Assembly (NCBI GenBank): GCA_040902505.1
Contig: JBBDXE010000025.1
Coordinates: 16,221 to 80,220 of the forward strand
Origin: Dehalococcoidia bacterium
GTDB lineage: Bacteria > Chloroflexota > Dehalococcoidia > DSTF01 > JACRBR01
Length of the DNA: 64,000 bases
Reading direction: 5' to 3'
Part shown: positions 1 through 16,964 of the stretch, in pieces
How positions within the stretch are numbered: position 1 is the stretch's first letter
Layout of the letters: each line of letters starts with the position of its first letter
Position numbers and translations under genes: made by a program
The notes under the pieces: generated by a model
Databases searched by the model: none
What the model was told of the DNA's origin: nothing
The model's input: the letters and a program-made list of their open reading frames with translations, nothing else

Positions 1-98
1 GCCGCGGCCTCCTCCACCCCCTCGCCAACCTCAACGGCGGCCTCGACGCCTGGCGCTCCGCCTCCCTCCCCGTGACCCTCCCGGGCGAGGATCGCTGA
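1..98 (+). CDS. rhodanese-domain protein, 3' end (partial; gene starts upstream of window)
   Basis: The frame beginning at position 3 reads ...HPLANLNGGLDAWRSASLPVTLPGEDR then TGA at 96-98. NLxGG(L/I)xAW is the typical rhodanese-domain C-terminus. Confidence 0.5.
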   Translation, partial: RGLLHPLANLNGGLDAWRSASLPVTLPGEDR

Positions 99-269
99 CC
101 GCCGCCCCCCTTTCTGGCGGCATGCTCCGCGACCCGCCCGTCGCGAGGCAGCGCCGCGGGATCGCCGGACGGCGCAACAACGTCGAAACACCTTGCCCCT
201 CGCCTCGAGCCTTCTGTCGATCTACAATCGCCTGCCCGATAGGACGCGACTACCGCGAAGGAGACGCAC

Positions 270-1328
270 ATGACCACGCAGCAGATCGACGAAGCCAAAC
301 TGATGGAGTTCGTGGGGCAGGCCGTGAGCGACATGGGCGCGGTGCTGCTCGGAAACCTCGTGGCCATCGGCGACAAGCTGGGGCTGTACCGCGGCCTCGC
401 CGGGGCCGCGCCGATGACCCCCGGCGAGCTGGCGCAGAAGACCGGCACCGCCGAGCGCTACATCCGCGAGTGGCTCAACGCGCAGTCGGCCGGCGGGTAC
501 GTCACCTACACCGGCGACGGACGCTACACCCTCTCGCCCGAGCAGACCGAGGCCCTCACGAACGAAGAGAGCCCCGCCTTCGTGCTGGGCGGCTTCCAGG
601 GCATGACCGCCGCGACGATGGCCCGCCCCCGCCTCATCGAGGCGTTCAAGAGCGGCAAGGGCGTGGGATGGGACGAGCACGACCCGGACCTGTTCCAGGG
701 CACCGAGCGCTTCTTCCGCCCCGGCTACGCCGCCAACCTCGTCGCCGCGTGGCTCCCCGCGCTCGACGGCGTCGTGCCGAAGCTCGAGGCCGGTGCGTCC
801 GTCGCCGACGTCGGCTGCGGCCACGGCGCCTCGACGATCATCATGGCCCGCGCCTACCCGAAGTCGAAGTTCACCGGCTTCGACTACCACGCTCCGTCGA
901 TCGAGGCGGCGCGCAAGGCGGCGAAGGACGCCGGGGTGACGAACTGCGACTTCCAGGTCGCCTCCGCGAAGGACTACCCCGGCTCGTACGACCTCGTCTG
1001 CCACTTCGACTGCCTGCACGACATGGGCGATCCCGCCGGCGCCGCCGCCTACACGCTGAAGTCGCTCAAGCCCGGTGGCACCTGGATGCTCGTCGAGCCC
1101 TTCGCGAACGACGATGTCGCGGACAACCTGAACCTCGTCGGGAAGGTCTTCTACTCCGCGTCGACGTTCATCTGCACGCCGGCGTCGCTGGCGCAGGAAG
1201 TGGGGACGGCGCTGGGCGCGCAGGCGGGCGAGAAGCGCCTCGGCGAAGTCGCGCGGCAGGCCGGCTTCACCCGCTTCCGCCGCGCCGCCGAGACCCCCTT
1301 CAACCTCATCCTCGAAGCCCGCGCCTGA
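270..1328 (+). CDS. class I SAM-dependent methyltransferase
   Basis: 352-aa ORF with the Gly-rich SAM motif I VADVGCGHGAS, an acidic loop FDYHAPSIEAARKAA, the post-II motif LKPGGTWML and a DCLHDMGDP motif. Clean ATG start. High-GC codon usage with third-position G/C. Confidence 0.8.
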   Translation: MTTQQIDEAKLMEFVGQAVSDMGAVLLGNLVAIGDKLGLYRGLAGAAPMTPGELAQKTGTAERYIREWLNAQSAGGYVTYTGDGRYTLSPEQTEALTNEESPAFVLGGFQGMTAATMARPRLIEAFKSGKGVGWDEHDPDLFQGTERFFRPGYAANLVAAWLPALDGVVPKLEAGASVADVGCGHGASTIIMARAYPKSKFTGFDYHAPSIEAARKAAKDAGVTNCDFQVASAKDYPGSYDLVCHFDCLHDMGDPAGAAAYTLKSLKPGGTWMLVEPFANDDVADNLNLVGKVFYSASTFICTPASLAQEVGTALGAQAGEKRLGEVARQAGFTRFRRAAETPFNLILEARA

Positions 1329-1381
1329 GGGCGAAGACGCCGCTCACTCCCCCCCGCCGCCCGCGCGGGGGAGGCACTGCG

Positions 1382-1515
1382 ACGATCGTTCACTGCGGCC
1401 ACGGCGAGTGGGCAGCCACAGCCGTCTCGCTGCTGAAGCGCCACGGCCTGCACCCCCTCACCAACCTCAAGGGCCCCGACGCCAGGCGCTCCGGCCGCCC
1501 GCCCCCTCGCCCTCT
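1382..1515 (+). pseudogene. rhodanese-domain 3' fragment (duplicated remnant)
   Basis: Reads TIVHCGHGEWAATAVSLLKRHGLHPLTNLKGPDARRS with no start codon. At nucleotide level it is about 85% similar to the rhodanese 3' end at 15-60. Confidence 0.45.
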
Positions 1516-1590
1516 TTACCCCCAGCAACAGCCGCCGTGGCCGGACGAGGTAGCCAGCCCACGATGCCCATAGTCGAGCCGAGGTTGAAC

Positions 1591-2499
1591 CTACGTGCCC
1601 AGTGGCAAAACCCGAACCCGGCCTGCATCCAAGTCAAGCTCGACGCGGCCACCGCCCTGAGCGTTGATGTCGTTCCAAGCCCTGAAGCCCTGCATTATCG
1701 CGTCTTCCCACTCGCCGGCTGTTCGGCGACTCACTTCTAGGTGATCCGTCATCGTCTTGACCGTACGCAATAGCTCGTAGTCAAGCCGAATCAAGCCGCG
1801 AAGGAAGTCTCGCCGCTCCGCATAGCTGAACACCAAGGCAGTGATGCCTTCCTCGATGACGATTGCACGACCACCATCTTCCACCTCGTCAACTGTTGGG
1901 TCGCTTCTGCGCTTCCGGTCAAGAAACTTTCGTGTTAGCGGCGACCAGCCCAACACAGCGGCGTATGCCAGGTGCAGAACATCGTGGAATCGATACCCGT
2001 CTTCCACGTGACGATTGTCCGTGAGCGGATCTCCAAAGGGGGCACCATCGACGGTTGTCCTCGTGCGTGCCTCGCCACTTTCCGCGGCAAAGAACTCAGC
2101 GACCATTCGCCTAGAAAGCCGCTCGGTTGAGGGGAAACCCTCATCCAGCGATTGACGCGGGATCGGCAACTTCATCTGGTCGTGGCCTACTTGTTCCCAG
2201 CGCGCGCGACACTTCTGCAGATTGCCCTCTGCGACATCGGATAGGCGGAGCCCGAGTTTGGATGTCGAGCACGCGAGATACCAGAGGAGGTCGCCGAGTT
2301 CCTCGCGTGCCCTATCACGGAAGAGGAGGTACGCCTCACCGTCCCTCACATATTTCTTGTACTCGCTCAGGATCTCGCCCACCTCTCCAGCGAGCCCTAA
2401 GAGTGGAATCACGACGGCTGCAGCTGACTTCTCATCGCCTAGCGTCTTAGACACTTGATCCGTGTCAAGAGCCCTTGCCTGATACTCGTCTATGTCCAT
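1591..2499 (-). CDS. MazG-like all-alpha NTP pyrophosphohydrolase domain protein with uncharacterised C-terminal domain
   Basis: N-terminal region contains LGLAGEVGEILSEYKK...EELGDLLWYLA...NLQKCRARW, i.e. the EExxE/ELGDLL metal-binding helices of MazG/HisE-type pyrophosphatases. C-terminal ~170 aa unrecognised. Lies in the AT-richer island. Confidence 0.7.
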   Translation of the reverse strand: MDIDEYQARALDTDQVSKTLGDEKSAAAVVIPLLGLAGEVGEILSEYKKYVRDGEAYLLFRDRAREELGDLLWYLACSTSKLGLRLSDVAEGNLQKCRARWEQVGHDQMKLPIPRQSLDEGFPSTERLSRRMVAEFFAAESGEARTRTTVDGAPFGDPLTDNRHVEDGYRFHDVLHLAYAAVLGWSPLTRKFLDRKRRSDPTVDEVEDGGRAIVIEEGITALVFSYAERRDFLRGLIRLDYELLRTVKTMTDHLEVSRRTAGEWEDAIMQGFRAWNDINAQGGGRVELDLDAGRVRVLPLGT

Positions 2500-2603
2500 G
2501 GCCTACCTCCAGGTGGGACCGCGCATCCCCCTAGCTGCTACTGGAACTGCCGTGCATGTAGGCGCCAGCTTGCCAACGCCCGATCAAGGCGTAAACTGGC
2601 CAC

Positions 2604-3275
2604 GTGCAGTTCGAGCGCCGCGTGCTCTCGTTTGTCAGCTCCCTTACGGAAGCCGACTTGCCATCGCACTTCACGAATCCCTACAAGACCGGCCACACTG
2701 CTCGGAACCTCCTGCTCTTTCTCACACGGCGGGATCGTCTTGCTTGGACGCTCTTGGCGATCGGCGAGGCCCCTGGCTACCGCGGCGCAGTGATGTCAGG
2801 CGTCCCTCTCAGTTCTCTCGCAACGCTTGCGGATCCATGGGGCGATCCTTGGGAGTCGTTCGGTCCGTCCAAAGGGTATAGCTTCCCGCCGAACCCGTTG
2901 TACTGGCGAGAAGCAACGGCCACGATCATATGGGAATCCTTCGCGATGCACCTTGCCGACTCACCCCTTCCACTCACATGGAACGCCGTGCCATTTCATC
3001 CGCAGAAAAACGGCCGCGCTTCGAACGCGTCGCTGCGCGCAAATCAATTGCACATTGGCCAACCGTGGATCGAGCGGCTTCTCGAGCTCTTCCCAAACGT
3101 CTTCCCTGTTGCAGTTGGCCGGCGTGCCTGCGAAACGCTATGCCAGCTGAAGGTCGACCATGAGGCAATTCGCCATCCGTCACGAGGCGGGAAGCAAGAG
3201 TTCAGCATGGGACTCGCTCGTGTTCGCTCTCTGATGTCACCTCCTCCTGCAACGAGCTCGCTAACGGTCGCATGA
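2604..3275 (+). CDS. uracil-DNA glycosylase superfamily protein (family 4/5-like)
   Basis: Motif A AIGEAPGYRG (GE[AG]PG) about 55 aa from the N-terminus and motif B EAIRHPSRGG (HPS) near the C-terminus, with spacing as in the UDG fold. Confidence 0.65.
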   Translation: MQFERRVLSFVSSLTEADLPSHFTNPYKTGHTARNLLLFLTRRDRLAWTLLAIGEAPGYRGAVMSGVPLSSLATLADPWGDPWESFGPSKGYSFPPNPLYWREATATIIWESFAMHLADSPLPLTWNAVPFHPQKNGRASNASLRANQLHIGQPWIERLLELFPNVFPVAVGRRACETLCQLKVDHEAIRHPSRGGKQEFSMGLARVRSLMSPPPATSSLTVA

Positions 3276-3972
3276 CGCCGATCCTCCCGAGGCGCGCATC
3301 CGTGCTCACGACAACCAGCCCGCCGCAAGTGAGCCTGGACTCCGCCGCCACAAGTTGCTGCAATCGTGCTAAGCCAACGAAGTTACCATACGCTTTTTCA
3401 TGATAGTAATGGGAACGGTAGACAGCGGTCACAACCAGCTCGTCGGCATCGCGATGAAACTGAACTTCTGAGAGGCATGGGAACCCAACTCGTGCGATGG
3501 CCGTCCGTCCGGGGCGTTCAAGCACGATGGGCCCTGGATCTGCCCATTTGCCACCGTCTGGTGTTCGATGGTTGAGCGCATCGATCACATCCCTAATCTG
3601 ATTGACGTTGGTGCCGTCCCCTTCATAGTCCACCATGCGCCGAAAATACGAGTTGGTTGGCAACTTGGGTAAGAGACGGAAGCCGACTCGCTCCCAATCG
3701 ACTGCTCGTGCCACAGTTAGTGGCAAGATCGTGCGGGCGACGACCCTAACGCGATCTGTGGCAGCCGCGCCCAATGCAGCATCCAGACGGCGAGCAAACG
3801 CGGAGCAGTCAGCCTGCGGCTCGGCGATCGACACAACCAAATTACGGATCCGGTGACCCGGTTGTCTCAACAGCGCGAGCACCGCTGCTCTCCACGCATC
3901 CTCCAACGTGCGGGCATCGACCAGAACCGCACCCCTCACGGCACGGCTCCCGCGTCGGGAAGTACGCGACAA
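3202..3972 (-). CDS. divergent thymidylate synthase / dCMP hydroxymethylase-fold protein
   Basis: By-eye alignment to ThyA: VGFRLLPKLPT matches DGFPLVTTKR, TNVNQI matches TNIAYL, GFPCLSEVQF matches LPPCHALFQF (catalytic Cys), VYRSH matches LYQRSC, AYGNFVGLARL matches GLPFNIASYALL, CGGLVVVSTDARL matches VGDFVWTGGDTHL. An alternative GTG start at 3939 overlaps the upstream stop by 4 nt (GTGA). Confidence 0.65.
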   Translation of the reverse strand: MSRTSRRGSRAVRGAVLVDARTLEDAWRAAVLALLRQPGHRIRNLVVSIAEPQADCSAFARRLDAALGAAATDRVRVVARTILPLTVARAVDWERVGFRLLPKLPTNSYFRRMVDYEGDGTNVNQIRDVIDALNHRTPDGGKWADPGPIVLERPGRTAIARVGFPCLSEVQFHRDADELVVTAVYRSHYYHEKAYGNFVGLARLQQLVAAESRLTCGGLVVVSTDARLGRIGVMRPLASSLQEEVTSESEHERVPC

Positions 3973-4976
3973 TCACTCATTAGCTGCGGGGCCTTGGCCG
4001 CGAGCCGACGCGCCACGCTCTCGGTCACCGCTCTGAACACAGGCGCTCCCGCCGCCATGTTGTCGTCCCTCTTGGGCGGCCCAATTCTGCGCAGCACTCT
4101 GGCCTCTGCAGCTCCCAGCAACCTCAATGCCCGCAGCCGGCTGATCGTGGCGGCGTGACTGACCCCGAACCTAGATCCAAGCTCGTGAATCCGGTCCAGA
4201 TTCAGAGCCCGGTGGCCGAGGCACTCGCGCACTGCCCTCTGCGGTAGCAGGAACGCCGCCGCGAACACGTCCGCGCGCAACTCGATCCTCTGGCGGGGTC
4301 CCGGCCTTGGCAATTCGGCGGCAGCGCACGCGTATCCGCCGCCCTCGCGATCCAACAAGAAATGCGCTAATTCGTGGGCTAGTGTGAACCGCTGTCTTAC
4401 CGGTGGGTGGTTACTGTTGACAAGCACCGCACTCGATGCGCTGTCTGTAACCACTATGCACCCGGAAATCGACGAACTGACCGGAAGTCGGGCAAGCACC
4501 ACTCCCACGCCTGCCTCCTGAACGAATCCTGACAGTGGAATCACCGGATCCTCTGCTGACAACCCCGTTGCACCACGGAACCAACGTGCGGCCAGTTCGC
4601 CGGCTTGTACTGGAGGAAGCCGGGACACCCGTGGGGGAATAGATAGAGGCATCCAATGCGGATCTGATCCTAGCGCGGACTGAACGGCCGAGAACCAAGC
4701 AAGTTGCGGTTCGTCGTCCGCATGTATGGTTACGCCTCTTAGCCTCATTTTAGGTAGAACTGGACGGCCTCCCTCCCGCGGCGTCAGAAGCAGGTCTGGG
4801 GTTACAGCCAGCAGCGCCGCTAGCCTCACCAACTCCGCAGCCGTGACTGGTCTCGTACCCCGCTCCATACGGCTAACGACCGTCCGGTCGAGGCCTAAGG
4901 CTCTCGCTAGGTCAGACTGGTTCCAACCCCGGCGATAGCGCGCCTGCTGGATATTCCATCCAATTTGTGTGTCCAC
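3936..4976 (-). CDS. fused HTH-XRE DNA-binding / ImmA-IrrE (DUF955) metallopeptidase-domain regulator
   Basis: N-terminal QQARYRRGWNQSDLARALGLDRTVVSRMERGTRPVTAAELVRLAALL is a Cro/C1-type HTH. C-terminal AHELAHFLLD (HExxH) plus RADVFAAAFLLP is typical of ImmA/IrrE. A Pro/Arg-rich linker lies between the two domains. Confidence 0.75.
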   Translation of the reverse strand: MDTQIGWNIQQARYRRGWNQSDLARALGLDRTVVSRMERGTRPVTAAELVRLAALLAVTPDLLLTPREGGRPVLPKMRLRGVTIHADDEPQLAWFSAVQSALGSDPHWMPLSIPPRVSRLPPVQAGELAARWFRGATGLSAEDPVIPLSGFVQEAGVGVVLARLPVSSSISGCIVVTDSASSAVLVNSNHPPVRQRFTLAHELAHFLLDREGGGYACAAAELPRPGPRQRIELRADVFAAAFLLPQRAVRECLGHRALNLDRIHELGSRFGVSHAATISRLRALRLLGAAEARVLRRIGPPKRDDNMAAGAPVFRAVTESVARRLAAKAPQLMSDCRVLPDAGAVP

Positions 4977-5245
4977 GGACGCAGACTAGACGACGGCGCA
5001 CGAGTCATGCAATAGATCTCTCGATAGTGTGCTAGATCAGCACATCACGCGGGACGCGATTCTCTTGAAACTGCCATCCGCCCATCCTTGACCCCTTACA
5101 CCCCCCGCCGCTACCCTTCCCCCACGATGAACCTCCACCGCATGGCGATGCCTCTGCCCCGGGAGAGCCGGGGCGCCCGTCTGGGATAGCGCCAGCATCC
5201 CCCGGCCACCCCCTGCGGCGGCCGGAGCCACGGAGGTCACACGCC

Positions 5246-6493
5246 ATGCCGTTCGCCCAGTCCCTGCGTTGCCGCGAGTGCAACCGTGAGTATCCCCTCG
5301 AGCCCCTGCACGTCTGCGAGTTCTGCTTCGGCCCCCTCGAAGTCGCCTACGACTACACCGCGATGCACCGCACCGTCACCCGCGAGTCCATCGAGCGCGG
5401 GCCCAACTCCGTCTGGCGCTACGCAGACCTCCTCCCCGCCGACCCCGCTCAGGCCGTCGACATCAACGCCGGCTTCACCCCCCTCGTCCGCGCCCGCAAC
5501 CTGGGCGAGCACCTGGGCCTGCGCAACCTCTGGCTCAAGAACGACTGCGCCAACCCCACCTGGTCCTTCAAGGACCGCGTCGTCACCGTCGCCGCGACGA
5601 AGGCCCGCGAGTTCGGCTTCGACACCCTCGCCTGCGCCTCCACCGGCAACCTCGCGAACAGCGTCTCCGCCCACGCCGCCGCCGCCGGCCTGAAATCGAT
5701 CGTCTTCATCCCCCACGACCTCGAGCGCGGCAAGATCCTCGGCTCCAGCGTCTACGGCGCCACCCTCGTCGCCGTCGACGGCAACTACGACGACGTCAAC
5801 CGCCTCTGCTCCGAGCTGGCCGACAGCTACCCGTGGGCGTTCGTCAACATCAACATGCGGCCGTACTACGCCGAGGGCAGCAAGACCCTCGGCTACGAGG
5901 TCGCCGAACAGCTCGGCTGGCGCGCCCCGGAGCACGTCGTCGTGCCGATGGCGTCGGGCTCGCTGTACGTGAAGATCTGGAAGGGGCTGCAGGAGCTGGC
6001 CCGCCTCTGGCTCATCGACAGCGTGCAGACGAAGATGTCCGGCGCCCAGGCCCGCGGCTGCTCCCCCATCGTCACCGCCTACGAGGCCGGCACCACCAAC
6101 GTCCGCCCCGTCCGGCCCGACACCATCGCCAAGTCGCTGGCCATCGGCAACCCCGCCGACGGCTACTACGCCCTCAAGGTCATGCAGGAGTCCGGCGGCT
6201 ACGGCGTCGCCGCCTCCGACGACGAGATCATCGACGGGATCAAGCTCCTCGCCGAGTCCGAGGGCATCTTCGCCGAGACCGCCGGCGGCGTCGTCACCGC
6301 CTGCCTGAAGAAGCTCGCCCAGGCCGGACGCATCGCCCCCGACGAGGTCACCGTCGCCTACATCACCGGCTCCGGCCTGAAGACGCAGGAGGCCGTCGAG
6401 GACCACGTCGCCCAGCCCGTCCACATCGCCCCCACCATCGCGTCGTTCGAGGAGCTGGTGCGCCCCCGCGAGCGCGAGCTGGCGGCATCATGA
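5246..6493 (+). CDS. threonine synthase family PLP enzyme (ThrC/MetM-like) with N-terminal Cys4 zinc ribbon
   Basis: CRECNREYPLEPLHVCEFC zinc ribbon. PLP lysine region NPTWSFKDR, Gly-rich loop ASTGNLANS and an ITGSGLK C-terminal motif are typical of ThrC-family fold-type II enzymes. Confidence 0.85.
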   Translation: MPFAQSLRCRECNREYPLEPLHVCEFCFGPLEVAYDYTAMHRTVTRESIERGPNSVWRYADLLPADPAQAVDINAGFTPLVRARNLGEHLGLRNLWLKNDCANPTWSFKDRVVTVAATKAREFGFDTLACASTGNLANSVSAHAAAAGLKSIVFIPHDLERGKILGSSVYGATLVAVDGNYDDVNRLCSELADSYPWAFVNINMRPYYAEGSKTLGYEVAEQLGWRAPEHVVVPMASGSLYVKIWKGLQELARLWLIDSVQTKMSGAQARGCSPIVTAYEAGTTNVRPVRPDTIAKSLAIGNPADGYYALKVMQESGGYGVAASDDEIIDGIKLLAESEGIFAETAGGVVTACLKKLAQAGRIAPDEVTVAYITGSGLKTQEAVEDHVAQPVHIAPTIASFEELVRPRERELAAS

Positions 6494-6691
6494 AGCCGCA
6501 CCCCACCATCGCTCACCCCTCCCACCACCCCTTCCCTTCAGGGAAGGGGCTGGGGTTAGGTCCGGGGCGGAGCGGGGCCGTAGCAATCCCTGACGTCGGC
6601 GGCGTCTGTGGTTCCCCAACTCCCACGGCCCCCGTACACTGCGACCTGCACGCCCGCGCGCCCCGCGCGCACACCCACGAGCGAGGCCCAC

Positions 6692-6934
6692 ATGGCACGC
6701 CAGCGCGTTAAGTTCACCTTCCCGCAAGAACTCATCACCCTGCCCCTCATCTACGAGCTGGGCAAGAACTTCACCCTCGTCACCAACATCCGCCGCGCCG
6801 ACGTCACCGAGGACCGCGGCTGGATCGTCCTCGAGGTCGAGGGCGACCTGACGGAGATCGAGCGGGCGCTGGACTGGGTCTCGGCGAAGGGCGTCCGCGT
6901 CGACCCCGTCCCCGGCGACATCGTCGAAGGCTAA
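6692..6934 (+). CDS. NIL-domain small protein
   Basis: 81 aa: MARQRVKFTFPQELITLPLIYELGKNFTLVTNIRRADVTEDRGWIVLEVEGDLTEIERALDWVSAKGVRVDPV. Ferredoxin-like NIL domain pattern, as at the MetN C-terminus. Confidence 0.6.
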   Translation: MARQRVKFTFPQELITLPLIYELGKNFTLVTNIRRADVTEDRGWIVLEVEGDLTEIERALDWVSAKGVRVDPVPGDIVEG

Positions 6935-7030
6935 CGAGCGGTCAGCCATCAGCCAGTCAGCAGTCAGCAGCGACCGATGAGCAGCCACCACGGACCAGCA
7001 ACCGGCGACCAGTAACCAGGACACCAGACC

Positions 7031-7312
7031 ATGGCCCAGATCCGCATCCCGGCACCGCTCCGCAAGCTCACGAACGACATCGAGATCGTGCAGGCGGAGG
7101 CCGCCACCCTCGCCGAGGCCATCGACCGCCTCGAGGGCGACTTCCCCGGCATGAAGGAGCGCCTCTGCGACGAGACCGGCCAGCTCCGCCGCTTCGTCAA
7201 CGTGTACGTCAACGGCGAAGACGTCCGCTTCCTCGACAACCTCGGCACGCCGCTGAAGCCCGGCGACGAGGTGAGCATCGTCCCCGCCGTCGCGGGCGGG
7301 TCCGGGGCGTAG
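7031..7312 (+). CDS. MoaD/ThiS/CysO-family sulfur-carrier protein (GG followed by SGA extension)
   Basis: 93-aa beta-grasp pattern FVNVYVNGEDV...LKPGDEVSIVPAVAGGSGA. The Gly-Gly is followed by three extra residues. Confidence 0.7.
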   Translation: MAQIRIPAPLRKLTNDIEIVQAEAATLAEAIDRLEGDFPGMKERLCDETGQLRRFVNVYVNGEDVRFLDNLGTPLKPGDEVSIVPAVAGGSGA

Positions 7313-7469
7313 CGCCGGCCCGGTCAGCGCGCCAGCCGTCGTCAGGCGGTCAGCCCCCGCGTCCCCCGTGGCGAGGGGGCTCTTGATTGGCCAATTGCAT
7401 TCGGCGAAAATCCGGGCCTTTCGGGGGTCTGCGGATTCGGGGCGGGGGGCGTTTGGCTTGATTGGGTTA

Positions 7470-7870
7470 GCGCGCATGGGCGTCGACCTCACCCCCGGCC
7501 TTCGGCCTGGCCTCGCCGAGGCGAGTCTGCGACCTCTCCACACGATGGAGAGGGAGGAGTGGTGGAGGGCGTTCATTGGGGGCCTCCGCGGTCGAGGGAC
7601 TGGAGGTGGCGGAGGATGGTGTTGCGGAGGCGCATCTTGCGGGCGACGTCGAGGGGCGGGGCGCGGCGAACCTCACCCCCGGCCTTCGGCCTGGCCCTCT
7701 CCACATCGTGGAGAGGGAGGAGGGGAGCGGGGCTTTCGTCGAGCGCACCGCCGGCCGGGGGCCCACACCCGATTTCGGCGTCGAGGGACTGGAGGTGGAG
7801 GTAGATGGCGTTGCGGAGGCGCTCTTTGCGGACGGGGTCGAGGGGCGGGCGGCGGCGGGGGGCACGGCGG
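7470..7870. repeat. tandem direct repeat, about 190-bp unit x ~2 copies with internal hairpins
   Basis: Unit acctcacccccggccttcggcctggcc...ctctccaca[ct][cg][ag]tggagagggaggag...tcgagggactggaggtgg.ggaggatggtgttgcggaggcgc.tcttgcgg at about 7476-7665 and 7666-7860. ggccttcggcc and ctctcca/tggagag are hairpin-forming. Spans the 3' end of CDS 7573-8232 and continues beyond its stop. Confidence 0.6.
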
Positions 7871-8232
7871 AGGGGCCGACCGGTGAGGGCGTCGCGGTTG
7901 GAGGCGTGCTCGTAGTCCGCGACGGAATTCTGGTGGCGGTTGGCGGCGTCGTCGCGGGCGGCGTCGTCGAGGGCGGTGGTGATGCGGCGGCGGAAGTTGA
8001 GGGCGACGGGGCGCTCGCCGAGGATGCGGAGGGCGTCGATGACGGTCTCGCGGATGCGGCCGTCGCGGAGGGCGTTGCGGCGGCCGAGGCCGAGGAGGAC
8101 GCTGCGGGCGACGGGGTCCTGCATGAGGGCGTAGATGACGGCGCGGACGCGGGGGGAGTAGCGGCCGGACTTGAGGCCGTTGAGGTTGCCTTTGGGGGCG
8201 CCGGCGCCGGGGCGGGATCCTCCGTGGGGCAT
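7573..8232 (-). CDS. hypothetical protein, paralog A (conserved N-terminus GAGAPKGNLNxLKSGRYSPRVRAV; C-terminus encoded by tandem repeats)
   Basis: N-terminal ~110 aa are homologous to the ORF at 11915-12421; the 5' ends are also similar at the DNA level. The C-terminal half reads through the 190-bp tandem repeat (PLLPLHDVERARPKAGGEV repeated), so the true stop is uncertain. Confidence 0.45.
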   Translation of the reverse strand: MPHGGSRPGAGAPKGNLNGLKSGRYSPRVRAVIYALMQDPVARSVLLGLGRRNALRDGRIRETVIDALRILGERPVALNFRRRITTALDDAARDDAANRHQNSVADYEHASNRDALTGRPLRRAPRRRPPLDPVRKERLRNAIYLHLQSLDAEIGCGPPAGGALDESPAPLLPLHDVERARPKAGGEVRRAPPLDVARKMRLRNTILRHLQSLDRGGPQ

Positions 8233-8237
8233 CGCGA

Positions 8238-8333
8238 GTCTCGCAGTCTGTCAGTCTGCCGGTCTGTCAGTCGGTCAGTCGGTCAGTCGGTCAGTCTGTC
8301 GGGCGGTCAGGCGGTCAGGCGGTCAGGCGGTCA
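8238..8333. repeat. octamer microsatellite (GGTCAG[TG]C)n, about 11 copies, immediately 5' of the start of CDS 7573-8232
   Basis: tctgtcagtctgccggtctgtcagtcggtcagtcggtcagtcggtcagtctgtcgggcggtcaggcggtcaggcggtcaggcggtca. Confidence 0.7.
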
Positions 8334-8571
8334 TAGTGTGGCGGTGTGGCGGGGGAACTCGAAGCGGTGGGTGACACTGGCGGCCGTGAGCGGTGAGCCG
8401 TGAGCCGTGAGCGGCGGGGGCGGGCGCGCGGGTGTGGCGCCTGGGCCCCGCCCCGGACGCAGCTGAAGCCTACGTCCCTACGAGATCCGGCCCGGTCCGG
8501 GAGCCAGCCCTCACCGGCCTCCGCCTACGTCCGACATCCGACTTCCAGCCGCCCTGCCGTATCATCCCGCC

Positions 8572-9381
8572 ATGACCGACGACCTGACCCGCCGCGCCCT
8601 CGCCGTGAACGAGGCCCAGCTCGCGCTCGCCAGCCTCGCCTTCGACACCGACGGCGCCCACTTCGTCCGCAACCCGGACTTCCCCCGCGTGCACGACGCC
8701 AACCACGCGTCGCACGTCACGGCCGCCACCCCCGACGAGATCGACCGCCTCCTCGCGCGCGTCGAGCGGGAGTTCGCCGGCCTCGCGCATCGCGTCTTCC
8801 ACACAGACGCCACCACGCCACCCGCCTTCGAGGCGCGGCTCGCGCTCGAGGGCTACGCGCCCAGTGACACTATCGTGATGCTCCTCGAGGGACCGTTGCG
8901 ATTCTTCCGAGGAAGGACCCCGGCCTGCGACATCCGCCCCGCCGGCGATGAGGCCAGATGGGCCGCGTACGCCGCCCTCCGCCTGCTCGACGGGGACGAG
9001 TACCTGCGCCGCACCGGCCGCAGCCCCGACCCCGCCTTCACCGCCGAGATGACCACCAACCGCCGCCGCATGTCGCCGCCCGTGCGCGTCTGGCTCGCCC
9101 ACGCCGATGGCGCTCCGGTCGGCTACTGCAGCTCGTGGGAGGGGACGGAGGGCGTCGGCCTGGTCGAGGACCTGTTCGTGCACCCCGACGCGCGCCGCCG
9201 CGGGATCGCCACCGCGCTGCTGCACCACTGCGTCGCCGACGCTCGCGCGTCGATGCCGACCGGCGACGGCCCCGTCGTCATCACCGCCGACCCCACCGAT
9301 ACGCCCGGCCGCATCTACGCCAACCTCGGCTGGCGCCCCACCGCCCTCAAGCGCTCCTGGCTGCGCATCGTCGAGCCGTGA
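8572..9381 (+). CDS. GNAT family N-acetyltransferase
   Basis: Motif A VGLVEDLFVHPDARRRGIATALL (acetyl-CoA binding Q/RxxGxG/A) in the C-terminal half of a 269-aa ORF. Confidence 0.8.
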   Translation: MTDDLTRRALAVNEAQLALASLAFDTDGAHFVRNPDFPRVHDANHASHVTAATPDEIDRLLARVEREFAGLAHRVFHTDATTPPAFEARLALEGYAPSDTIVMLLEGPLRFFRGRTPACDIRPAGDEARWAAYAALRLLDGDEYLRRTGRSPDPAFTAEMTTNRRRMSPPVRVWLAHADGAPVGYCSSWEGTEGVGLVEDLFVHPDARRRGIATALLHHCVADARASMPTGDGPVVITADPTDTPGRIYANLGWRPTALKRSWLRIVEP

Positions 9382-9673
9382 GCCCCGAGCCGTAAACGCC
9401 GGGAGGCGGCCATGGGACCCGCGGGGACGCCGCCGGGGACGAGGGGGAACCACAGATTTCACAGATGGCCACAGATTCTCCACCTCCACCACCCCCGGCG
9501 CCGTAGCGACAGGTCTTCAGACCTGTCCGCCTCCACCCGTCGCGTACGCGTACCCCGGAGGCAGCGCGAAGCGCGGGGCATCCGCCCGGGGCGGCTCCCC
9601 GGCCGTGCCTCCGCCCGGGCACACACCACCCCGCGTACGGGGTCCTCTCTGGGCCCAACTGATGCGCTAAGCG

Positions 9674-9867
9674 ATCGTCATCGAGAAGGCGGACGGCAAC
9701 TACTCCGCCTACGTCCCCGACCTCCCCGGCTGCATCGCCACCGGCGCCACCCCTGCGGAGACCGAAGACCAGATCCGCGAGGCCATCCGCTTCCACCTCG
9801 AAGGCCTCCGCGACGACGGCCTCCCCTCCCTCCTCCCACCACTGTCATCGACTACATCGAGCCCTGA
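9674..9867 (+). pseudogene. HicB-family antitoxin remnant (no start codon, internal frameshift)
   Basis: Reads IVIEKADGNYSAYVPDLPGCIATGATPAETEDQIREAIRFHLEGLRDDGLP, the HicB/UPF0150 signature. It then shifts frame in a C-run (ccctccctcctccc) into ...LPPPTTVIDYIEP*. It is preceded by ATG-CGC-TAA only. Confidence 0.55.
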
Positions 9868-9912
9868 CCCCACCCAACTCCCGGCCTCCGCCCTCTATCA
9901 GCCCATGTCCAA

Positions 9913-9995
9913 CACCCCCGGCCACATCTACGCCCACCTAGGCTGGCGGCCCGCCGCCAGCAACGTTCCTGGCTCGGCCCGGCGTTGGTCCGTAG
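9913..9995 (+). repeat. duplicated 3' fragment of the GNAT gene (direct repeat of 9301-9381)
   Basis: acccccggccacatctacgcccacctaggctggcggcccgccgcc compared with acgcccggccgcatctacgccaacctcggctggcgccccaccgcc. Encodes GHIYAHLGWRPAA versus GRIYANLGWRPTA. Confidence 0.5.
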
Positions 9996-10088
9996 CATCA
10001 CACCCGCGTCCGCCTGGGGCTGTATCGGCGTGCCGGCGAGGGCCTGTACACTGGCCTTAAGCGCGTCGCAGGCCGAGGCATCGTCGGT

Positions 10089-11820
10089 GTGGATCGCCAT
10101 GGCGTCGGTGTGAATGAGGATGGACATGTGACGACCGAGCAAGGCAGTGCGACGCTGGCGCAGTCAGCCCTGGCCCTTATCGTCCTGACCCTGGTCTTTG
10201 TGTCAGGCATTGGACTTCTCGCGTTTGCATCTTTTGTTGCATTCCGAGATGGCTTCGCTAACGCCCTCGTTGTTCTGTATATGCTCGGCATACTTTGTCT
10301 CGCTGGCACGCTCGTTGCCCTAAACATGGTCGGCTCTCTGACAGTGAAGCACAATGATACCGAGGTCAAACTCGAACAACCTCGGCCGCGGCCCGCGTCA
10401 TCAAACCCAAACGTTGAGGCAGCCCCCGGCACTGCTGAACCTGAAAGAAGGAGGGACGATTCCGCCAGCGAGGCTGCCACGGCAGCTGCTCCAACAGATG
10501 GCGGCAAGAGCTTGTTCTCCGAAGCAATCGACGCGTGGGCAAATCATGACTATGCGTCATTCGACCTGAAGATGATCGCCTACATAGAACAGCAGCAGGA
10601 GGGAGATAAGGCTACGTTCGACGCCTTTCGGCTGTCTTGGCTGTATGAGGCCGGCCAAGGACGCCGACTCCAAGAATTGCATGCCCTCCGCAGGGACAAT
10701 CCCTCTGCTCCCGCGGTTCTGCTTCGACTCGCCGAGGCCTACATGTTTACTGATCAGCCAAAGGTCGCCCTAGATCTCTACGAGCAGGGCGCCGCCCTTT
10801 CAGGCCTCTCTGTGGATCATCGCCGTGAAATTCTGACCGGCCAAGTTCGCGCGCGGATCAAACTTAAGGAATACGAGGCGTCTGAAGGACGCCTGAGGGT
10901 TGCTGAGTTGGAAGACCCAGCACCCCAGTGGCAACACTCCATCCACAAACTGTTCGCCGAGGTCTACGACGCTTGGGATGATCAAGTGCGTAAGCATTGG
11001 CATCTTGAGCAGGCGGGTGGAGGCGAATCCCGGCGACCTCTCTACACGGTTCGACCTGGCCTACAGCTATGGACGTTCCGGCGACAGCCTCTTGTCTCTG
11101 TACCACTACGAGATCTTACGCCGCCAACGCGCTTACGCCATGGAGATAAATAATCTCGGCGTTGCTCTCCAACAGATGGACATGCCAATAACCGCGGCCT
11201 TCTACTACAAGGAAGCGATTGACAAAGGGAACACGTTGTCTTCGGCGAACCTCGCTCGGGTCATGCTCAAGAGTGGCCTCGTGGTCGAAGCGAAACAAGT
11301 GTTGGACGCGGCGCTCTCCCTCAAGGACAGCGAGGGTGAAGCCGTCGAAGTCGATGACAACGTTCATGAAGCACACGCTGTAATCACGCGGGCTGAGGAG
11401 GAAGAGCGCGAGAGGATGATACGAATTGTTGAGGCCAGCCGCCTAGAGCGGCAACTCTTTCTTGCATCGATGGAGAAAGATCAAGTCGCAACAACCATTC
11501 TTCGAGACGACGAGTTCTTGGGTGAGTGGGACACGAACTTTGGCAAGCTAACATTTGCCAAGGAAGGACCCGATTACTCGGCAGCCTTCAAGACGGACGA
11601 CCTTTGGGATTGGTCGCTCAGTGGTGGAATCGATCGCAAAAGGAGAACCTTTACGTTCCGATGGAGCACCAACAAGCACGACTACCGCCGTCCCGATAAC
11701 GACGAAGGCACTGGCTACTTCGTGTTCCGCGAGAACACGTTCGAGGGCTTCCTTCGGAACAGGCCTGACAAGGGAGAAGTCATGGCCGTTACGGGCCGCC
11801 ACCCCTCAGACACCCCCTAA
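10089..11820 (+). pseudogene. membrane-anchored TPR-repeat protein, apparently frameshifted near 11000-11020 (two overlapping ORFs 10089-11153 and 10900-11820)
   Basis: GTG start. Two N-terminal TM helices (LALIVLTLVFVSGIGLLAFASFVAF; LVVLYMLGILCLAGTLVAL), then TPR-like helices (LLRLAEAYMFTDQPKVALDLYEQ). The +1-frame ORF continues with further TPR-like repeats (DLAYSYGRSGDSLLSLYHYEI; NNLGVALQQMDMPITAAFYYKEAIDKGN). AT-richer than surroundings. Confidence 0.5.
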
Positions 11821-11914
11821 TCGGCGGAGTGACACAACCCGATAAGAGATCCGCCCCCGCCTCCTCCACGATCCCTCCAGGCTGACCCGCTGACAGACTG
11901 ACAGGCTCACACCA

Positions 11915-12421
11915 ATGCCAAGAGGAGGCCGCCGCCCCGGAGCCGGAGCCCCGAAGGGCAACCTCAACGCCCTCAAGTCCGGGCGCTACTCCCCGCGCGT
12001 CCGCGCCGTCCTCTACGCTCTCGTCGATGACCCCACCACCCGCTCCGTCCTCCTCCAGGTGGGCCTCCGCGGCGCCGCCCCCCGCGGCCGCCTGCGTGAC
12101 ACCATCACCGACACCATCCGCCTCCTCCACGACCGCCCCGTCTCCGACGAGTTCCGGGCCCGCGTCCGCGCCCTCCTCGGCCGCGACGACGACGCCCGGA
12201 TCGCCCGCCGCGTCCAGAGCGCCATGGACAGCTACCGCAAAGGGACCGGTCAGAGCGCCCTCGCCGAAGGTCCCCTCCGCCGGGGCACCACGCCCGCGGT
12301 AAAGCCGCCGCGCCCGCCGCGCGTCCGCTACCGTCCCGTCCTCCCCCCCGGGCCGCATCTTCTGGGTGGACCTGGAGGAGCCGCCGGAAGCCTCCACCAC
12401 CCCGCCCGAAGCGTGAGGTGA
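11915..12421 (+). CDS. hypothetical protein, paralog B (N-terminus GAGAPKGNLNALKSGRYSPRVRAVLYAL)
   Basis: 168-aa ORF. N-terminal ~110 aa are homologous to paralog A (7573-8232, opposite strand). C-terminus is Pro/Arg-rich. Confidence 0.45.
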   Translation: MPRGGRRPGAGAPKGNLNALKSGRYSPRVRAVLYALVDDPTTRSVLLQVGLRGAAPRGRLRDTITDTIRLLHDRPVSDEFRARVRALLGRDDDARIARRVQSAMDSYRKGTGQSALAEGPLRRGTTPAVKPPRPPRVRYRPVLPPGPHLLGGPGGAAGSLHHPARSVR

Positions 12422-12490
12422 TGCACATGCGCTTCAAGACAATCGGTCCGGCTGCGCATATTGCGGAACCTCAGACCCCCCGAAACGCCC

Positions 12491-12523
12491 CGTTTTTTTC
12501 GAAAGACAATCCCGCAATCAAAG
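12491..12523 (+). promoter_or_regulatory. conserved upstream element cgtttttt.cg..aga.aatcccgcaatcaaa (copy 1, upstream of argC)
   Basis: About 50 nt similar to 56465-56513 upstream of tsaB. Contains a small hairpin aaacg-ccc-cgttt followed by a T-run. Not in a shared reading frame. Confidence 0.3.
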
Positions 12524-12612
12524 CCTCCGGCCTCCCCGCCCCGGGCATGCGCGGTCATCTGTGTAATCTGTGGATGGGCGCGGCTATACTGGCGGTTTCC
12601 GAGAGGGGCGCA

Positions 12613-13631
12613 TGGTGACGACGGTCGGGATTCTGAACGTCACGGGGTACGCGGGGAGCGAGCTGGCGCGGCTGGTGCACGGGCATCCGGGGGTGCGGCT
12701 GGCGGGGGTGACGGGGCGGTCGGCGGCGGGGAAGCGGCTGGGGGAGGTGTTCCCGCACCTCTGGGCGCTGGACCTGCCGATCGTGGAGGAGCTGCCGGCG
12801 GTGGACGTGGTGCTCTCGACGCTGCCCCACGCGGCGGCGGCGGCGCAGCTGGTCCCGTACATCGAGGCGGGGGTGCCCGTCATCGACCTGAGCGCCGACT
12901 TCCGGCTGAAGCGCGTCGAGGCGTACGAGGCGGCCTACCAGACGACGCATCCGGCGGCGGGGCTGCTGGGGCGGGCGGTGTACGGGCTGCCGGAGCTGCA
13001 CCGGGGGGAGATCCCGCCGGCGAAGCTCGTCGCGGCGCCGGGGTGCCACGCGGCGGGGGTGATCCTGGCGCTTGCGCCGGCGATCGCGCGGGGGCTGATC
13101 GAGCCGGAGGTGATCGCCGACACGAAGACAGGGCTGTCGGGGGCGGGGCGGACGCTGGGGCTGAGCGTGCACTTCTCGGAGGCGGACGAGTCGGTGGCGC
13201 CGTACGGGCTGGAGGGGCACCGGCATCACCCGGAGATGGTGCAGGAGCTGTCGCTGCTGGCGGAGGCGCCGGCGCCCTCGATCACGTTCGTGCCGCACTA
13301 TGTGCCGATGACACGCGGCATCCTCTCGACGTGCTACGGGACGCTGCGGCGGCCGATGACGCGGGAGCAGCTGCGGGAGGCGTATCGCGAGTTCTACGCC
13401 GATGCGCCGTTCGTGCACGTCGCGGACGCGCCGCCATCGACGAAGCACGTGGCGGGGACGAACTACTGCATCGTGCACCCGACGATCGACCAGACGACGG
13501 GGCGGGCGGTGCTGGTGAGCGCGCTCGACAATCTGGGGAAGGGTGCGGCGGGGGCGATGGTGCAGTGCCTGAACCTGATGCTGGGGCTGCCGGAAGACAC
13601 GGGGCTGCAGCAGCTCGGGATGTTCCCGTAG
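12613..13631 (+). CDS. argC: N-acetyl-gamma-glutamyl-phosphate reductase
   Basis: MVTTVGILNVTGYAGSELARLV start, catalytic Cys region AAPGCHAAGVILALAP, C-terminal NLGKGAAGAMVQCLNLMLG. First gene of the argC-argJ-argB operon. Confidence 0.9.
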
Positions 13632-14906: not shown

Positions 14907-15686
14907 ATGAGCGAACGTCCTATCGTGGTGAAGGTGGGGGGGTCGACGCTGGGCGCGCACGACACGTCGCTGCGGGATATCGCGGGGGCGCGGCGCGCGG
15001 GACGGGCGGTGGTGGTGGTGCACGGGGGAGGGGCGACGGTCAGCGCGTGGCTGGAGCGGATGGGGATGACGGCGACGTTCGTGCGGGGGCTGCGGGTCAC
15101 GGACGCGGCGACACTCGACGTGGTGGTGGCGGTGCTGGCGGGGCTGGTGAATACGCAGCTGGTGGCGGAGCTGGGGGCGCTGGGCGCGCCGGCAGTCGGG
15201 CTGAGCGGCGCCGATGGGATGATGCTGCAGGCGCACCGCTTCGACGAGGAGCTGGGGTTCGTGGGGCGGATCCACGCCGTCAACGCGCGGCCGGTCGAAG
15301 AGCTGCTGCGGCTGGGACAGCTGCCGCTGATCGCGCCGATCGCGGTGGCGACGGACGCGGCGGGCGGGCAGTTGCTGAACACGAACGCGGATACGGCGGC
15401 GGGGGAGCTGGCGGCGGCACTGCACGCGGAGCAGCTGGTGTTCCTGACGGACGTCGAGGGGGTGCTGGACGAGGAGAAGCGGGTGCTGCCGCGTCTGACG
15501 GCGGCGCAGGCGGGGGAGCTGGTGGCGTCGGGCGTGGCGAGTGGCGGGATGGTCCCGAAGCTCGAGGCGGCGGTGCGGGCAGCGTCATCCGGGTGCGCGA
15601 CGCGCATCGTCGACGGGACGGCGGAGGGGGCGCTGGCGCGGGTGCTGCGCGGGGAGGCGGTGGGGACGACGGTGGCGGCGGGGTGA
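14907..15686 (+). CDS. argB: acetylglutamate kinase
   Basis: IVVKVGGSTL...VVVVHGGG...NTNADTAAGELAAAL...GGMVPKLEAA, the amino-acid kinase family signature. Confidence 0.9.
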   Translation: MSERPIVVKVGGSTLGAHDTSLRDIAGARRAGRAVVVVHGGGATVSAWLERMGMTATFVRGLRVTDAATLDVVVAVLAGLVNTQLVAELGALGAPAVGLSGADGMMLQAHRFDEELGFVGRIHAVNARPVEELLRLGQLPLIAPIAVATDAAGGQLLNTNADTAAGELAAALHAEQLVFLTDVEGVLDEEKRVLPRLTAAQAGELVASGVASGGMVPKLEAAVRAASSGCATRIVDGTAEGALARVLRGEAVGTTVAAG

Positions 15687-15737
15687 TCCGCAACCCTTTT
15701 TCTATTGCACGCTCGACAGCGCCGATGCAGTTTCTGG

Positions 15738-16100
15738 CTAGTTACGGGTGATGATCCATGTCTTGTCATCCTCCTCTGTCACGACGAGATCATGGGCCCG
15801 CGCCACGGCCACGAATTTCTCAGACAGACGTGTGGGAAGGTTCATGAAGACGAGACGCATGCCCTTGCCTTCATCTCGAGCCGTGATCTCGGTCACGACG
15901 TGGAGCGCCTCATCTATGAACGAGGGCGTGATCGCCTCGATGTTCGAGAAGTCCAGGTCGATTTCCACGCCAGCTGCGCTTGTCTCAAGCGCACGGTCGA
16001 GCACATGTTGAACCTTGCGTGCCGATTCTCTTGTCACGAGCACGCGCCTGCCCAACAACTCGAAAAGACCTATGCTGACAGCGTTCACGTCAGATCTCAT
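15738..16100 (-). CDS. STAS-like (DUF4325-type) domain protein
   Basis: 120 aa: ...VEIDLDFSNIEAITPSFIDEALHVVTE... The anti-sigma-antagonist-like pattern. AT-richer islet. Overlaps the upstream GHKL gene by 4 nt. Confidence 0.6.
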   Translation of the reverse strand: MRSDVNAVSIGLFELLGRRVLVTRESARKVQHVLDRALETSAAGVEIDLDFSNIEAITPSFIDEALHVVTEITARDEGKGMRLVFMNLPTRLSEKFVAVARAHDLVVTEEDDKTWIITRN

Positions 16101-16957: not shown

Positions 16958-16964
16958 CAGATGG

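Follow-up and report, generated by a model that had tools for sequence, protein, structure and literature searches.

A foreign four-gene island in a Dehalococcoidia bacterium suggests a nucleotide-modifying conflict system whose thymidylate-synthase-fold enzyme belongs to an undescribed clade

Thymidine hypermodification in phages proceeds through a deoxyuridine monophosphate (dUMP) hydroxymethylase, a deoxynucleoside triphosphate (dNTP) pyrophosphatase, the kinase 5-HMUDK, which phosphorylates 5-hydroxymethyldeoxyuridine (5-hmdU) in phage DNA, and an aGPT-Pplase (PMC5889632, PMC8989533). In Escherichia coli the DS-4 ('NTTI') system comprises a thymidylate synthase (TS), a deoxynucleoside monophosphate (dNMP) kinase, a 5-hmdU DNA kinase (HMUDK_hel), a TIR protein and Nmad2, and protects against phage (PMC13092281). 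The same report, by DeWeirdt, Mahoney and Laub (2026), presents a machine-learning prediction of a defence system with MazG, MazG-C, NMAD and uracil-DNA glycosylase (UDG) components (Fig. 6F/S12B), describes MazG_C as a predicted kinase and cites Burroughs 2015 as predicting several of these domains in defence (PMC13092281). In addition, the UDG-fold glycosylase Brig1 is a proven antiviral defence effector (PMC11078745), SMUG1 excises many substrates besides uracil (PMC12699328) and, within the TS superfamily, an Asn at TS position 177 indicates that the substrate carries uracil and not cytosine (PMC13326640). The present analysis concerns a 64,000-nucleotide stretch of Dehalococcoidia bacterium contig JBBDXE010000025.1 (metagenome-assembled genome GCA_040902505.1, positions 16,221 to 80,220 of the forward strand), referred to here as the window, which carries a compositionally distinct island of four genes at 1591–4976. 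The island is a minimal member of a widespread, uncharacterised gene-cluster family, and its genes are consistent with the induced production and processing of a modified deoxyuridine. The four genes are the following.

1591–2499, minus strand: MazG-MazG_C protein of 302 aa, recognised by the Pfam families MazG and MazG_C
2604–3275, plus strand: UDG-superfamily DNA glycosylase-like protein (UDG-like) of 223 aa with a predicted SMUG1-like fold, recognised by an AlphaFold2 (AF2) model, Foldseek and motifs
3202–3939, minus strand: divergent TS-fold enzyme (TS-like) of 245 aa, with a GTG start at 3939 and an alternative TTG start at 3972
3936–4976, minus strand: XRE-type helix-turn-helix (HTH) domain fused to an M78 (ImmA/IrrE) metallopeptidase (XRE-M78), 346 aa, recognised by Pfam

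The GC content of 1591–4976 is 0.605, against a mean of 0.691 (standard deviation 0.020) in all other 3.4-kb windows of the 64 kb (z = -4.3), and in the sliding profile the drop starts at approximately 1550–1600 and is reversed at approximately 5100. GC at third codon positions (GC3) lies between 0.63 and 0.66 in all four genes of the island, against 0.90–0.98 in the flanking methyltransferase, ThrC-like, NIL, ThiS and GNAT genes. Because of this low GC3 relative to the flanks and the deviation in overall GC, the four-gene block is recognised as compositionally foreign and horizontally acquired. An initial annotation, made from the sequence alone, had proposed an AT-richer island of four genes, and both the open reading frames (ORFs) at its coordinates and the base composition bear this out. 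The alternative that it had considered, namely four syntenic core genes of uniform composition, is excluded by the foreign GC3 and by the patchy distribution of the gene cluster across phyla. Similarly, its domain calls for all four proteins were upheld by Pfam, profile and Foldseek comparisons.

The TS-like enzyme was called with an identical 245-aa product in an independent assembly (L038) that covers the same locus as the window. The NCBI annotation (WEC75_08595) gives just the C-terminal 144 aa of this gene; the first 100 residues, which lie outside that call, are conserved among homologues. The AF2 model of the enzyme (pLDDT 84, pTM 0.85) is matched by Foldseek, with a probability of 1.00, E-values of 6e-9 to 1e-7 and template-modelling (TM) scores of 0.54–0.62, to TS, to MilA and to the deoxycytidine monophosphate (dCMP) hydroxylase of phage HY126 (9iqu, 9iqc), and viral TS and dCMP hydroxymethylases also match the model. 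In the profile-PDB alignment Pro-154 and Cys-155 correspond to the P-C146 pair of E. coli TS, Arg-175 to Arg-166 and Asn-186 to Asn-177. Among 55 TS-like sequences the invariant residues are Trp-16, Pro-73, Tyr-98, Arg-101, Pro-154, Cys-155, Tyr-174, Gly-185 and Asn-186, and Arg-175 is at least 90% conserved. Thus, the product that was initially placed at 3202–3972 has the ThyA fold, with the P-C motif positioned on the catalytic Cys, and the equivalence of Asn-186 with Asn-177 points to a uridine-type substrate. For both the TS-like and the UDG-like protein, searching the PDB with one sequence alone returned noise only, and family profiles were required.

Existing sequence models capture this enzyme poorly. 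The Pfam TS family (PF00303) matches the window protein with an E-value of 0.07 and 12.7 bits against a cutoff of 24.3, TIGR03283 reaches 3.6e-10 but scores 39.7 against a cutoff of 174.55, and PF00303 is found at E≤0.01 in just 20 of the 55 family members (best 1e-8); no Pfam family beyond these weak TS matches covers the TS-like family. An exhaustive hidden Markov model (HMM) search recovered 1,578 cluster representatives, of which 909 reach E≤1e-10, and so overturned the impression of a very rare family given by the 10 relatives found in a word-indexed search. A tblastn search of 50,697 phage genomes found nothing that matched the TS-like protein; the module is therefore cellular and not a known phage pathway. 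The TS-like family is an undescribed clade of TS-fold enzymes with a distinct gene neighbourhood.

The 2604–3275 product belongs to the UDG superfamily and, according to its AF2 model (pLDDT 94.4, pTM 0.89), is predicted to be structurally closest to SMUG1. The best Foldseek matches are SMUG1 of human, Xenopus and Geobacter (E 2e-9 to 1e-6, TM 0.60–0.65), after which family-4 UDG, UdgX and MUG are ranked, and the order agrees with that of the UDG-like profile against PDB sequences (SMUG1 1.7e-4, Tth UDGb 3.4e-4). The segments GEAPGYRG, WNAxPFHP and RHPSRGG are invariant in 43 UDG-like sequences, and both motif A (GxxPG) and motif B (HPS) are intact. The window protein itself falls below the Pfam PF03167 cutoff (12.8 versus 24.3 bits); approximately 100 homologues are found, and many of them, at 30–58% identity, have PF03167 matches. 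The relationship to UDG on which the initial annotation depended is therefore sustained by the high-confidence model and its SMUG1 matches, although the more specific label of a family-4-like UDG survives only in part. Motif A is indeed of the family-4 type (GEAPG) and not the GMNPG of SMUG1, but the nearest structure is of family 3 (SMUG1) and the four Cys ligands of the family-4 iron-sulphur (Fe-S) cluster are absent, the protein having only two Cys (RRACETLCQ), neither of which is conserved. The gene is convergent with the TS-like gene, which it overlaps by 74 nt. Another assembly calls the UDG-like product as 217 aa; no NCBI entry was seen for the gene, the sole exact match coming from a Logan assembly. 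An identification of the protein as an aGPT-Pplase was rejected, since aGPT-Pplases have a helix-hairpin-helix glycosylase fold.

The MazG-MazG_C protein is made up of an all-alpha NTP pyrophosphohydrolase at the N-terminus (residues ~1–105) and a MazG_C domain at the C-terminus (~116–298). The Pfam MazG match is weak, although above threshold (2.2e-6, 28.3 bits versus a cutoff of 22), while MazG_C (PF18722) is matched at 2.5e-69 with 233 bits against a cutoff of 29.7 and with 184 of the 190 profile positions covered. The MazG-like pyrophosphatase had been recognised correctly from the sequence; this strong second domain had been missed. The acidic metal-binding motifs GEVGE and REELGD are present, Glu-39 being invariant in 10 MazG-MazG_C sequences and Glu-67 and Asp-70 at least 90% conserved. 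The profile of the protein matches YpjD (5.1e-6) and DCTPP1/RS21-C6 (1.3e-4) in the PDB through the N-terminal domain only, and a comparison of profile against PDB gave no relative of MazG_C by sequence. PHROG 229 is matched over the full length, MazG and MazG_C together (6e-36), and residues 1–103 are 40–43% identical to actinophage MazG.

In the XRE-M78 protein, HTH_3 extends over residues 9–63 (4.3e-12) and Peptidase_M78 over residues 178–281 (1.2e-18), with the HExxH signature present as HELAH. Among PADLOC profiles it matches capP (2e-28), RmrA (1.7e-22) and capH (7.8e-7). The translational GTGA coupling to the TS-like gene that had been proposed is real, as the XRE-M78 stop codon TGA (3938–3936) overlaps the TS-like start codon GTG (3939–3937), the start that yields the product also called in L038, and the same M78-to-TS-like order and coupling are repeated in two related loci (L001, L002).

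Gene contexts were gathered from metagenomic relatives and 26 genomes and annotated with profiles built from those loci. The resulting set of 34 non-redundant loci covers at least six phyla; approximately 12 of the loci come from Acidimicrobiia and many are closely related, so that the counts are descriptive and carry no statistical test. The loci span Chloroflexota, Acidimicrobiia, Microbacteriaceae, Bradyrhizobium, Betaproteobacteria (Hydrogenophaga, Ralstonia, Rubrivivax), Nitrospira and Zixibacteria. The search for a conserved neighbourhood of the TS-like protein, which the initial annotation had suggested as a check, thus reveals one, with MazG_C in 22 of the 34 loci and M78 in 27. A UDG-superfamily gene occurs in 12 loci and a homologue of the 5-hmdU DNA kinase (HMUDK) in 19, the HMUDK_hel match being as strong as 1.7e-102; the two are found together in 0 of 34 loci, and one or the other is present in 31. 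The three loci with neither are accounted for by a truncated contig, by a kinase gene just past the 7-kb limit and by disruption through a transposase and group II intron. UDG and 5-hmdU kinase are mutually exclusive partners in this cluster family. The core of the cluster consists of the TS-like enzyme, the MazG-MazG_C protein and one of these two partners, which would act on an abnormal uracil-type base in DNA. Four architectures are distinguished.

Architecture A: HMUDK, small protein, TS-like, 4'-phosphopantetheinyl transferase (PPTase), HTH, M78, papain-like, MazG-MazG_C
Architecture B: HTH, M78, papain-like, TS-like, convergent MazG-MazG_C, HMUDK
Architecture C: MazG-MazG_C, TS-like, UDG-Panacea fusion
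Architecture D (window type): HTH/M78, TS-like, optional radical SAM/Tmk/DCD/PPTase, convergent UDG-like, MazG-MazG_C

The sequencing run SRR27977660 yields both L038, the window locus, and L011, a second and more complex Dehalococcoidia variant in which HTH and M78 are encoded separately and radical SAM, DCD-like and PPTase genes are also present.

Several related loci display features of conflict systems. In architecture C the UDG (PF03167 at ~1e-25) is fused to SocA/Panacea (L012 4996–6117, L014 6610–7953, L026 8693–9817, L034 8695–9816 and L035 8695–9810), and genes for Mrr-type and BstXI restriction endonucleases lie directly downstream of the fusion in L026 and L014. Another related locus has a type I HsdM gene in its vicinity, along with transposases and a group II intron reverse transcriptase. 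Accessory proteins of relatives (L008 7541–8587, L006 7711–8370) match PADLOC profiles, the radical SAM protein those of prokaryotic viperins (pVip, 4.8e-11) and the Tmk-like kinase VakA and PDC-M51B.

A further hallmark of this kind is seen in three loci, where the M78 protein ends in a chagasin (I42) domain, which inhibits papain-family peptidases (L006 9086–10665, L005 2498–4649, L008 9322–10949), and a gene for a papain-like C1 peptidase follows directly; this arrangement, absent from the window, looks like a built-in protease/inhibitor pair. Small upstream genes weakly matching the phosphopantetheine-attachment (acyl carrier protein, ACP) family at ~1e-3 (L006 10994–11206, L008 11388–11645) co-occur within the cluster with PPTase (ACPS genes in L003, L005 and L010). 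Two related clusters are disrupted. In L009 (8745–11495) an inserted IS1595 transposase and N6/N4-methyltransferase-HNH gene separate the radical SAM gene from the TS-like gene, and the papain-like gene has been split as well, and in L020 (10374–13607) an insertion of ~3.2 kb interrupts the M78 gene.

From the folds, the retained catalytic residues and the neighbourhood described above, we infer a substrate, a product, a trigger and a role in defence. The initial annotation, too, had put forward DNA modification or defence as a candidate function. With a probability that we set at about one half, the island is an inducible conflict system, probably directed against phages, that makes a C5-modified deoxyuridine nucleotide and then processes the base in DNA. 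The XRE-M78 protein would keep the operon that encodes it repressed, and a signal of stress or infection would switch on the peptidase and end the repression, as in CapH/CapP or ImmR/ImmA. The Cys of the TS-like enzyme would attack C6 of a uridine-type nucleotide, the target suggested by the retained Asn-177 equivalent, and install a group at C5, most likely hydroxymethyl or a similar oxygenated one. MazG would remove competing or unwanted dNTPs, and MazG_C, a predicted kinase, would help to bring the modified nucleotide toward the triphosphate. The modified base would then enter replicating DNA and be excised by the SMUG1-like glycosylase, thereby damaging a fast-replicating invader or aborting the infected cell; alternatively, the glycosylase could serve as a safeguard by clearing the base from host DNA. 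A C5-oxygenated uracil in DNA is proposed because both alternative partners, the SMUG1-like UDG and HMUDK, belong to families that handle it, SMUG1 being the main 5-hydroxymethyluracil (5-hmU) glycosylase. Induced use in biological conflict, most likely phage defence, is proposed because of the repressor-protease switch together with the other hallmarks. A more specific form, which we regard as possible but rather doubtful, is a 'poison-base' immunity in which the infected cell makes a C5-modified dUTP, such as 5-hydroxymethyl-dUTP, the base is incorporated massively during replication and the SMUG1-like glycosylase turns it into lethal lesions. The corresponding division of labour, with the TS-fold clade acting alongside a MazG-MazG_C pool editor and the 5-hmdU DNA kinase making the lesions in sister systems, is equally tentative.

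A number of observations weigh against the inducible conflict system. In the TS-like enzyme Tyr-178 is aligned to the folate-contacting Asp-169 of TS, and the deoxyribose-contacting positions His-207 and Tyr-209 are unconserved, the GDxHxY region reading STDARLG in the window and varying across the family; any assignment of cofactor, sugar specificity and product is therefore tentative. The Leu-143 position is a Gly and, together with the Tyr at Asp-169, this means that the enzyme fits no methylase, hydroxymethylase or hydroxylase signature. Flavin-dependent dCMP hydroxylases are also among the best structural matches of its model. The kinase role of MazG_C comes only from a prediction in PMC13092281, and the window variant has no recognisable dNMP kinase (e.g. 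Tmk), although some relatives have one. The fusion to Panacea hints that the UDG could be an antidote rather than an effector. Kinship among the 34 loci makes the counts overstate independent support, and the neighbours of the island in the window are housekeeping genes, with no defence island. What the family does is deduced from sequence, and PADLOC has no match for the MazG-MazG_C, UDG-like and TS-like proteins or for six accessory proteins of relatives; the lack of a match for the three enzymes means that the island is not a catalogued system.

The same genes could instead defend against modified pyrimidines made by phages, which we consider unlikely. MazG would in that case hydrolyse a 5-hm-dUTP-like nucleotide, the glycosylase or kinase would attack 5-hmU DNA and the TS-like enzyme would bind or reverse the dNMP. 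Such a role fits the nearest PDB matches of the MazG domain, YpjD and DCTPP1/RS21-C6, and DCTPP1 prefers C5-modified dCTPs. It also fits the excision of phage-specific bases by Brig1-type UDG-fold glycosylases, the SMUG1 fold nearest to the UDG-like protein and the action of HMUDK on 5-hmdU in DNA (PMC8989533). However, it leaves the most conserved part of the cluster, a biosynthetic-type TS-fold enzyme with an intact nucleophile, without a clear role, and an inducible repressor-protease switch would be needless for a self-safe, substrate-specific enzyme. Moreover, the related DS-4 gave a reduction against lambda, which is not known to carry hmU.

Pyrimidine modification of self DNA by the host or a mobile element, Dpd- or Dnd-like, as an epigenetic mark or as protection from nucleases, is about as improbable. 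The gene set does parallel phage thymidine hypermodification in its TS homologue, NTP pyrophosphatase and 5-hmdU kinase (PMC5889632, PMC8989533), and bacterial genomes are reported to contain homologues of hypermodification genes (PMC5889632). However, the annotation revealed no aGPT-Pplase, no transferase and no cognate nuclease, the DNA-acting enzyme of the window is a glycosylase, which would erase a mark, and the repressor-protease control argues for induced and not constitutive expression.

Still less probable is a decayed prophage or mobile-element remnant in which nucleotide and ImmR/ImmA-type genes are left without function as a unit. The low GC of the island would suit such an origin, as would an XRE-M78 protein typical of prophage and integrative-element (ICE) immunity, the many PHROG families matched and the commonness of MazG in phages, with PHROG 229 spanning MazG and MazG_C. 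In contrast, the four ORFs are intact and keep their catalytic motifs, distant phyla carry the same set of genes, again as a compact free-standing block, the island has no integrase, structural or replication genes, and the TS-like protein is absent from the phage genomes searched. A cassette for the synthesis of a natural product of the modified-nucleoside type, as with MilA or bacimethrin, and not directed at DNA, is very improbable: although MilA, a CMP hydroxymethylase, ranks with the best structural matches and relatives have ACP-like genes, PPTase and radical SAM enzymes, the obligate partner is DNA-acting (UDG or 5-hmdU DNA kinase), no transporter, glycosidase or tailoring set is found, and the window variant lacks carrier-protein genes.

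If the inducible conflict system is the right reading, the family would be a large and taxonomically broad one, built on an undescribed TS-fold clade of at least 1,500 sequence clusters, and bacteria would have made the modification of nucleotides and DNA bases, a chemistry documented to date chiefly in phages, into a weapon or mark that can be induced. If the poison-base form holds, the chemistry of phage DNA hypermodification would be turned against phages themselves. A biochemical context would be provided for MazG_C, for the bacterial 5-hmdU-kinase homologues and for the Fe-S-less UDG clade, and these would be linked to DS-4, which is validated but mechanistically unexplained. The enzymes could also serve as tools to make or detect modified pyrimidines in DNA. 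The idea is testable in cultured carriers, namely Bradyrhizobium lupini BA2, Bradyrhizobium sp. BWA-3-5, B. shewense ERR11 and Hydrogenophaga palleronii.

Three further features border or divide the genes of the island.

1447–1514, plus strand: second copy of the 3' end of a rhodanese gene, abutting the left edge of the island (first copy at 11–80)
2500–2603, no strand: intergenic spacer that separates the divergently transcribed MazG-MazG_C and UDG-like genes and contains a promoter-like site
4977–5100, no strand: low-GC region upstream of the XRE-M78/TS-like operon, at the right edge of the island in the GC profile

The gene at the left edge of the window, upstream of the methyltransferase gene, is a rhodanese gene in the L038 assembly, and its 3' end at 11–80 is repeated at 1447–1514 (plus strand; 80% identity over 71 nt, blastn E 8e-12). 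The repeat that had been taken as an insertion scar of the island therefore exists, but its copies bracket the methyltransferase gene and not the island; this enclosed gene (270–1328) encodes a Rv2258c-like winged-HTH S-adenosylmethionine-dependent methyltransferase and has native composition. The rhodanese repeats around it suggest a separate insertion or duplication event adjoining the island. No att-like direct repeats of at least 13 nt were found flanking the island, an Rfam scan of 1–13000 gave no RNA family, and an exact look-up of the ThrC-like protein, aimed at island-free relatives, gave no match. In the divergent intergenic region a putative promoter, TTGCCA-16-TAAACT, is present at 2570–2597 (plus strand) as a consensus match only. 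At the right edge GC is 0.52 over 5000–5099 and 0.72 from 5100, and a consensus promoter scan of 4977–5100 found none.

Elsewhere in the window a second low-GC patch (9750–12000, GC 0.56–0.61) contains two overlapping plus-strand ORFs, 10089–11153, which has no Pfam match, and 10900–11820, which has a sub-threshold TPR_19 match (8.2e-4). It is bracketed by a 304-nt inverted repeat (7929–8232 / 11915–12218, 73% complementary) that lies in paralogous ORFs without a Pfam match. The unannotated minus-strand ORF 7573–8232 is associated with repeats of 66–78 nt in the region 7533–7857 (7591/7780, 85%; 7533/7696, 73%). A third low-GC patch extends over 15500–17250, with 1-kb windows at 0.58–0.63, and the 40-nt sequence GTGCAGGCGGATCAGATCCTTCGCTTCGCTCAGGATGACA is present at 45486, 47369 and 49461 in three copies ~2 kb apart, with 93% and 65% identity.

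Among the described systems, the predicted MazG/MazG-C/NMAD/UDG system, which is implicated in nucleotide modification, shares with the island a MazG and MazG_C protein and a UDG protein (PMC13092281). The paper names neither a TS-fold partner nor an XRE-M78 switch for that system (PMC13092281), and no window protein has an Nmad Pfam domain at E≤1. Compared in this way, the island may be of the same kind. The initial view that the combination corresponds to no named system thus holds as regards PADLOC, yet a similar gene set had already been predicted in PMC13092281. The domains of the island are unmentioned in two recent defence-discovery papers, and parts of the neighbourhood may already be covered by earlier Aravind-lab work.

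DS-4 resembles the cluster family in combining a TS-superfamily enzyme with nucleotide enzymes and a 5-hmdU-kinase homologue, the relatives of the window carrying HMUDK_hel too. However, the 361-aa TS of DS-4 belongs to the canonical Pfam TS family and is related by hhalign to the TS-like family with just 9.6% probability, and the window lacks TIR, Nmad2, adenylate-kinase-like and HMUDK genes, four of the five DS-4 genes, and has MazG-MazG_C, UDG and XRE-M78 instead. On this comparison of gene content and sequence, the island is not DS-4. A correspondence of the TS-like protein to the 'NMAD' of DS-4 was rejected, as hhalign shows no similarity to DS-4 Nmad2.

With phage thymidine hypermodification the island shares a general order of steps, in which a TS homologue would give a C5-modified dUMP, a pyrophosphatase follows and an enzyme then acts on 5-hmdU in DNA. 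In contrast, the cluster of the window is cellular, a glycosylase takes the place of the kinase and a repressor-protease switch is present. By Pfam neither 5-HMUDK nor aGPT-Pplase is found in the window, and in the related loci HMUDK_hel occurs in the 19 noted above, without an aGPT-Pplase or pyridoxal-phosphate (PLP) enzyme. The TS-like enzymes share with the TS superfamily (ThyA, T4 dCMP hydroxymethylase, MilA and the flavin-dependent 5-hydroxy-dCMP synthases; PMC13326640) the fold, the Cys, Arg-166 and Asn-177, and differ in their length of ~225–300 aa and in scoring below Pfam and TIGRFAM thresholds. Similarly, the UDG fold is common to SMUG1, Brig1 and the UDG-like protein, but the family of the window is tied to TS-like and MazG_C genes and does not stand alone. 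CapH/CapP and ImmR/ImmA likewise combine an XRE HTH with an HExxH M78 peptidase, a pair that in the relatives is embedded in the operon; CapH and CapP are two separate proteins, of which the peptidase is activated by ssDNA and cleaves the repressor, whereas the window has one fused protein and most related loci have separate genes. Taken together, these comparisons suggest that the island represents a type of nucleotide-modifying conflict system under CapH/CapP-like control, built on an undescribed clade of TS-fold enzymes.

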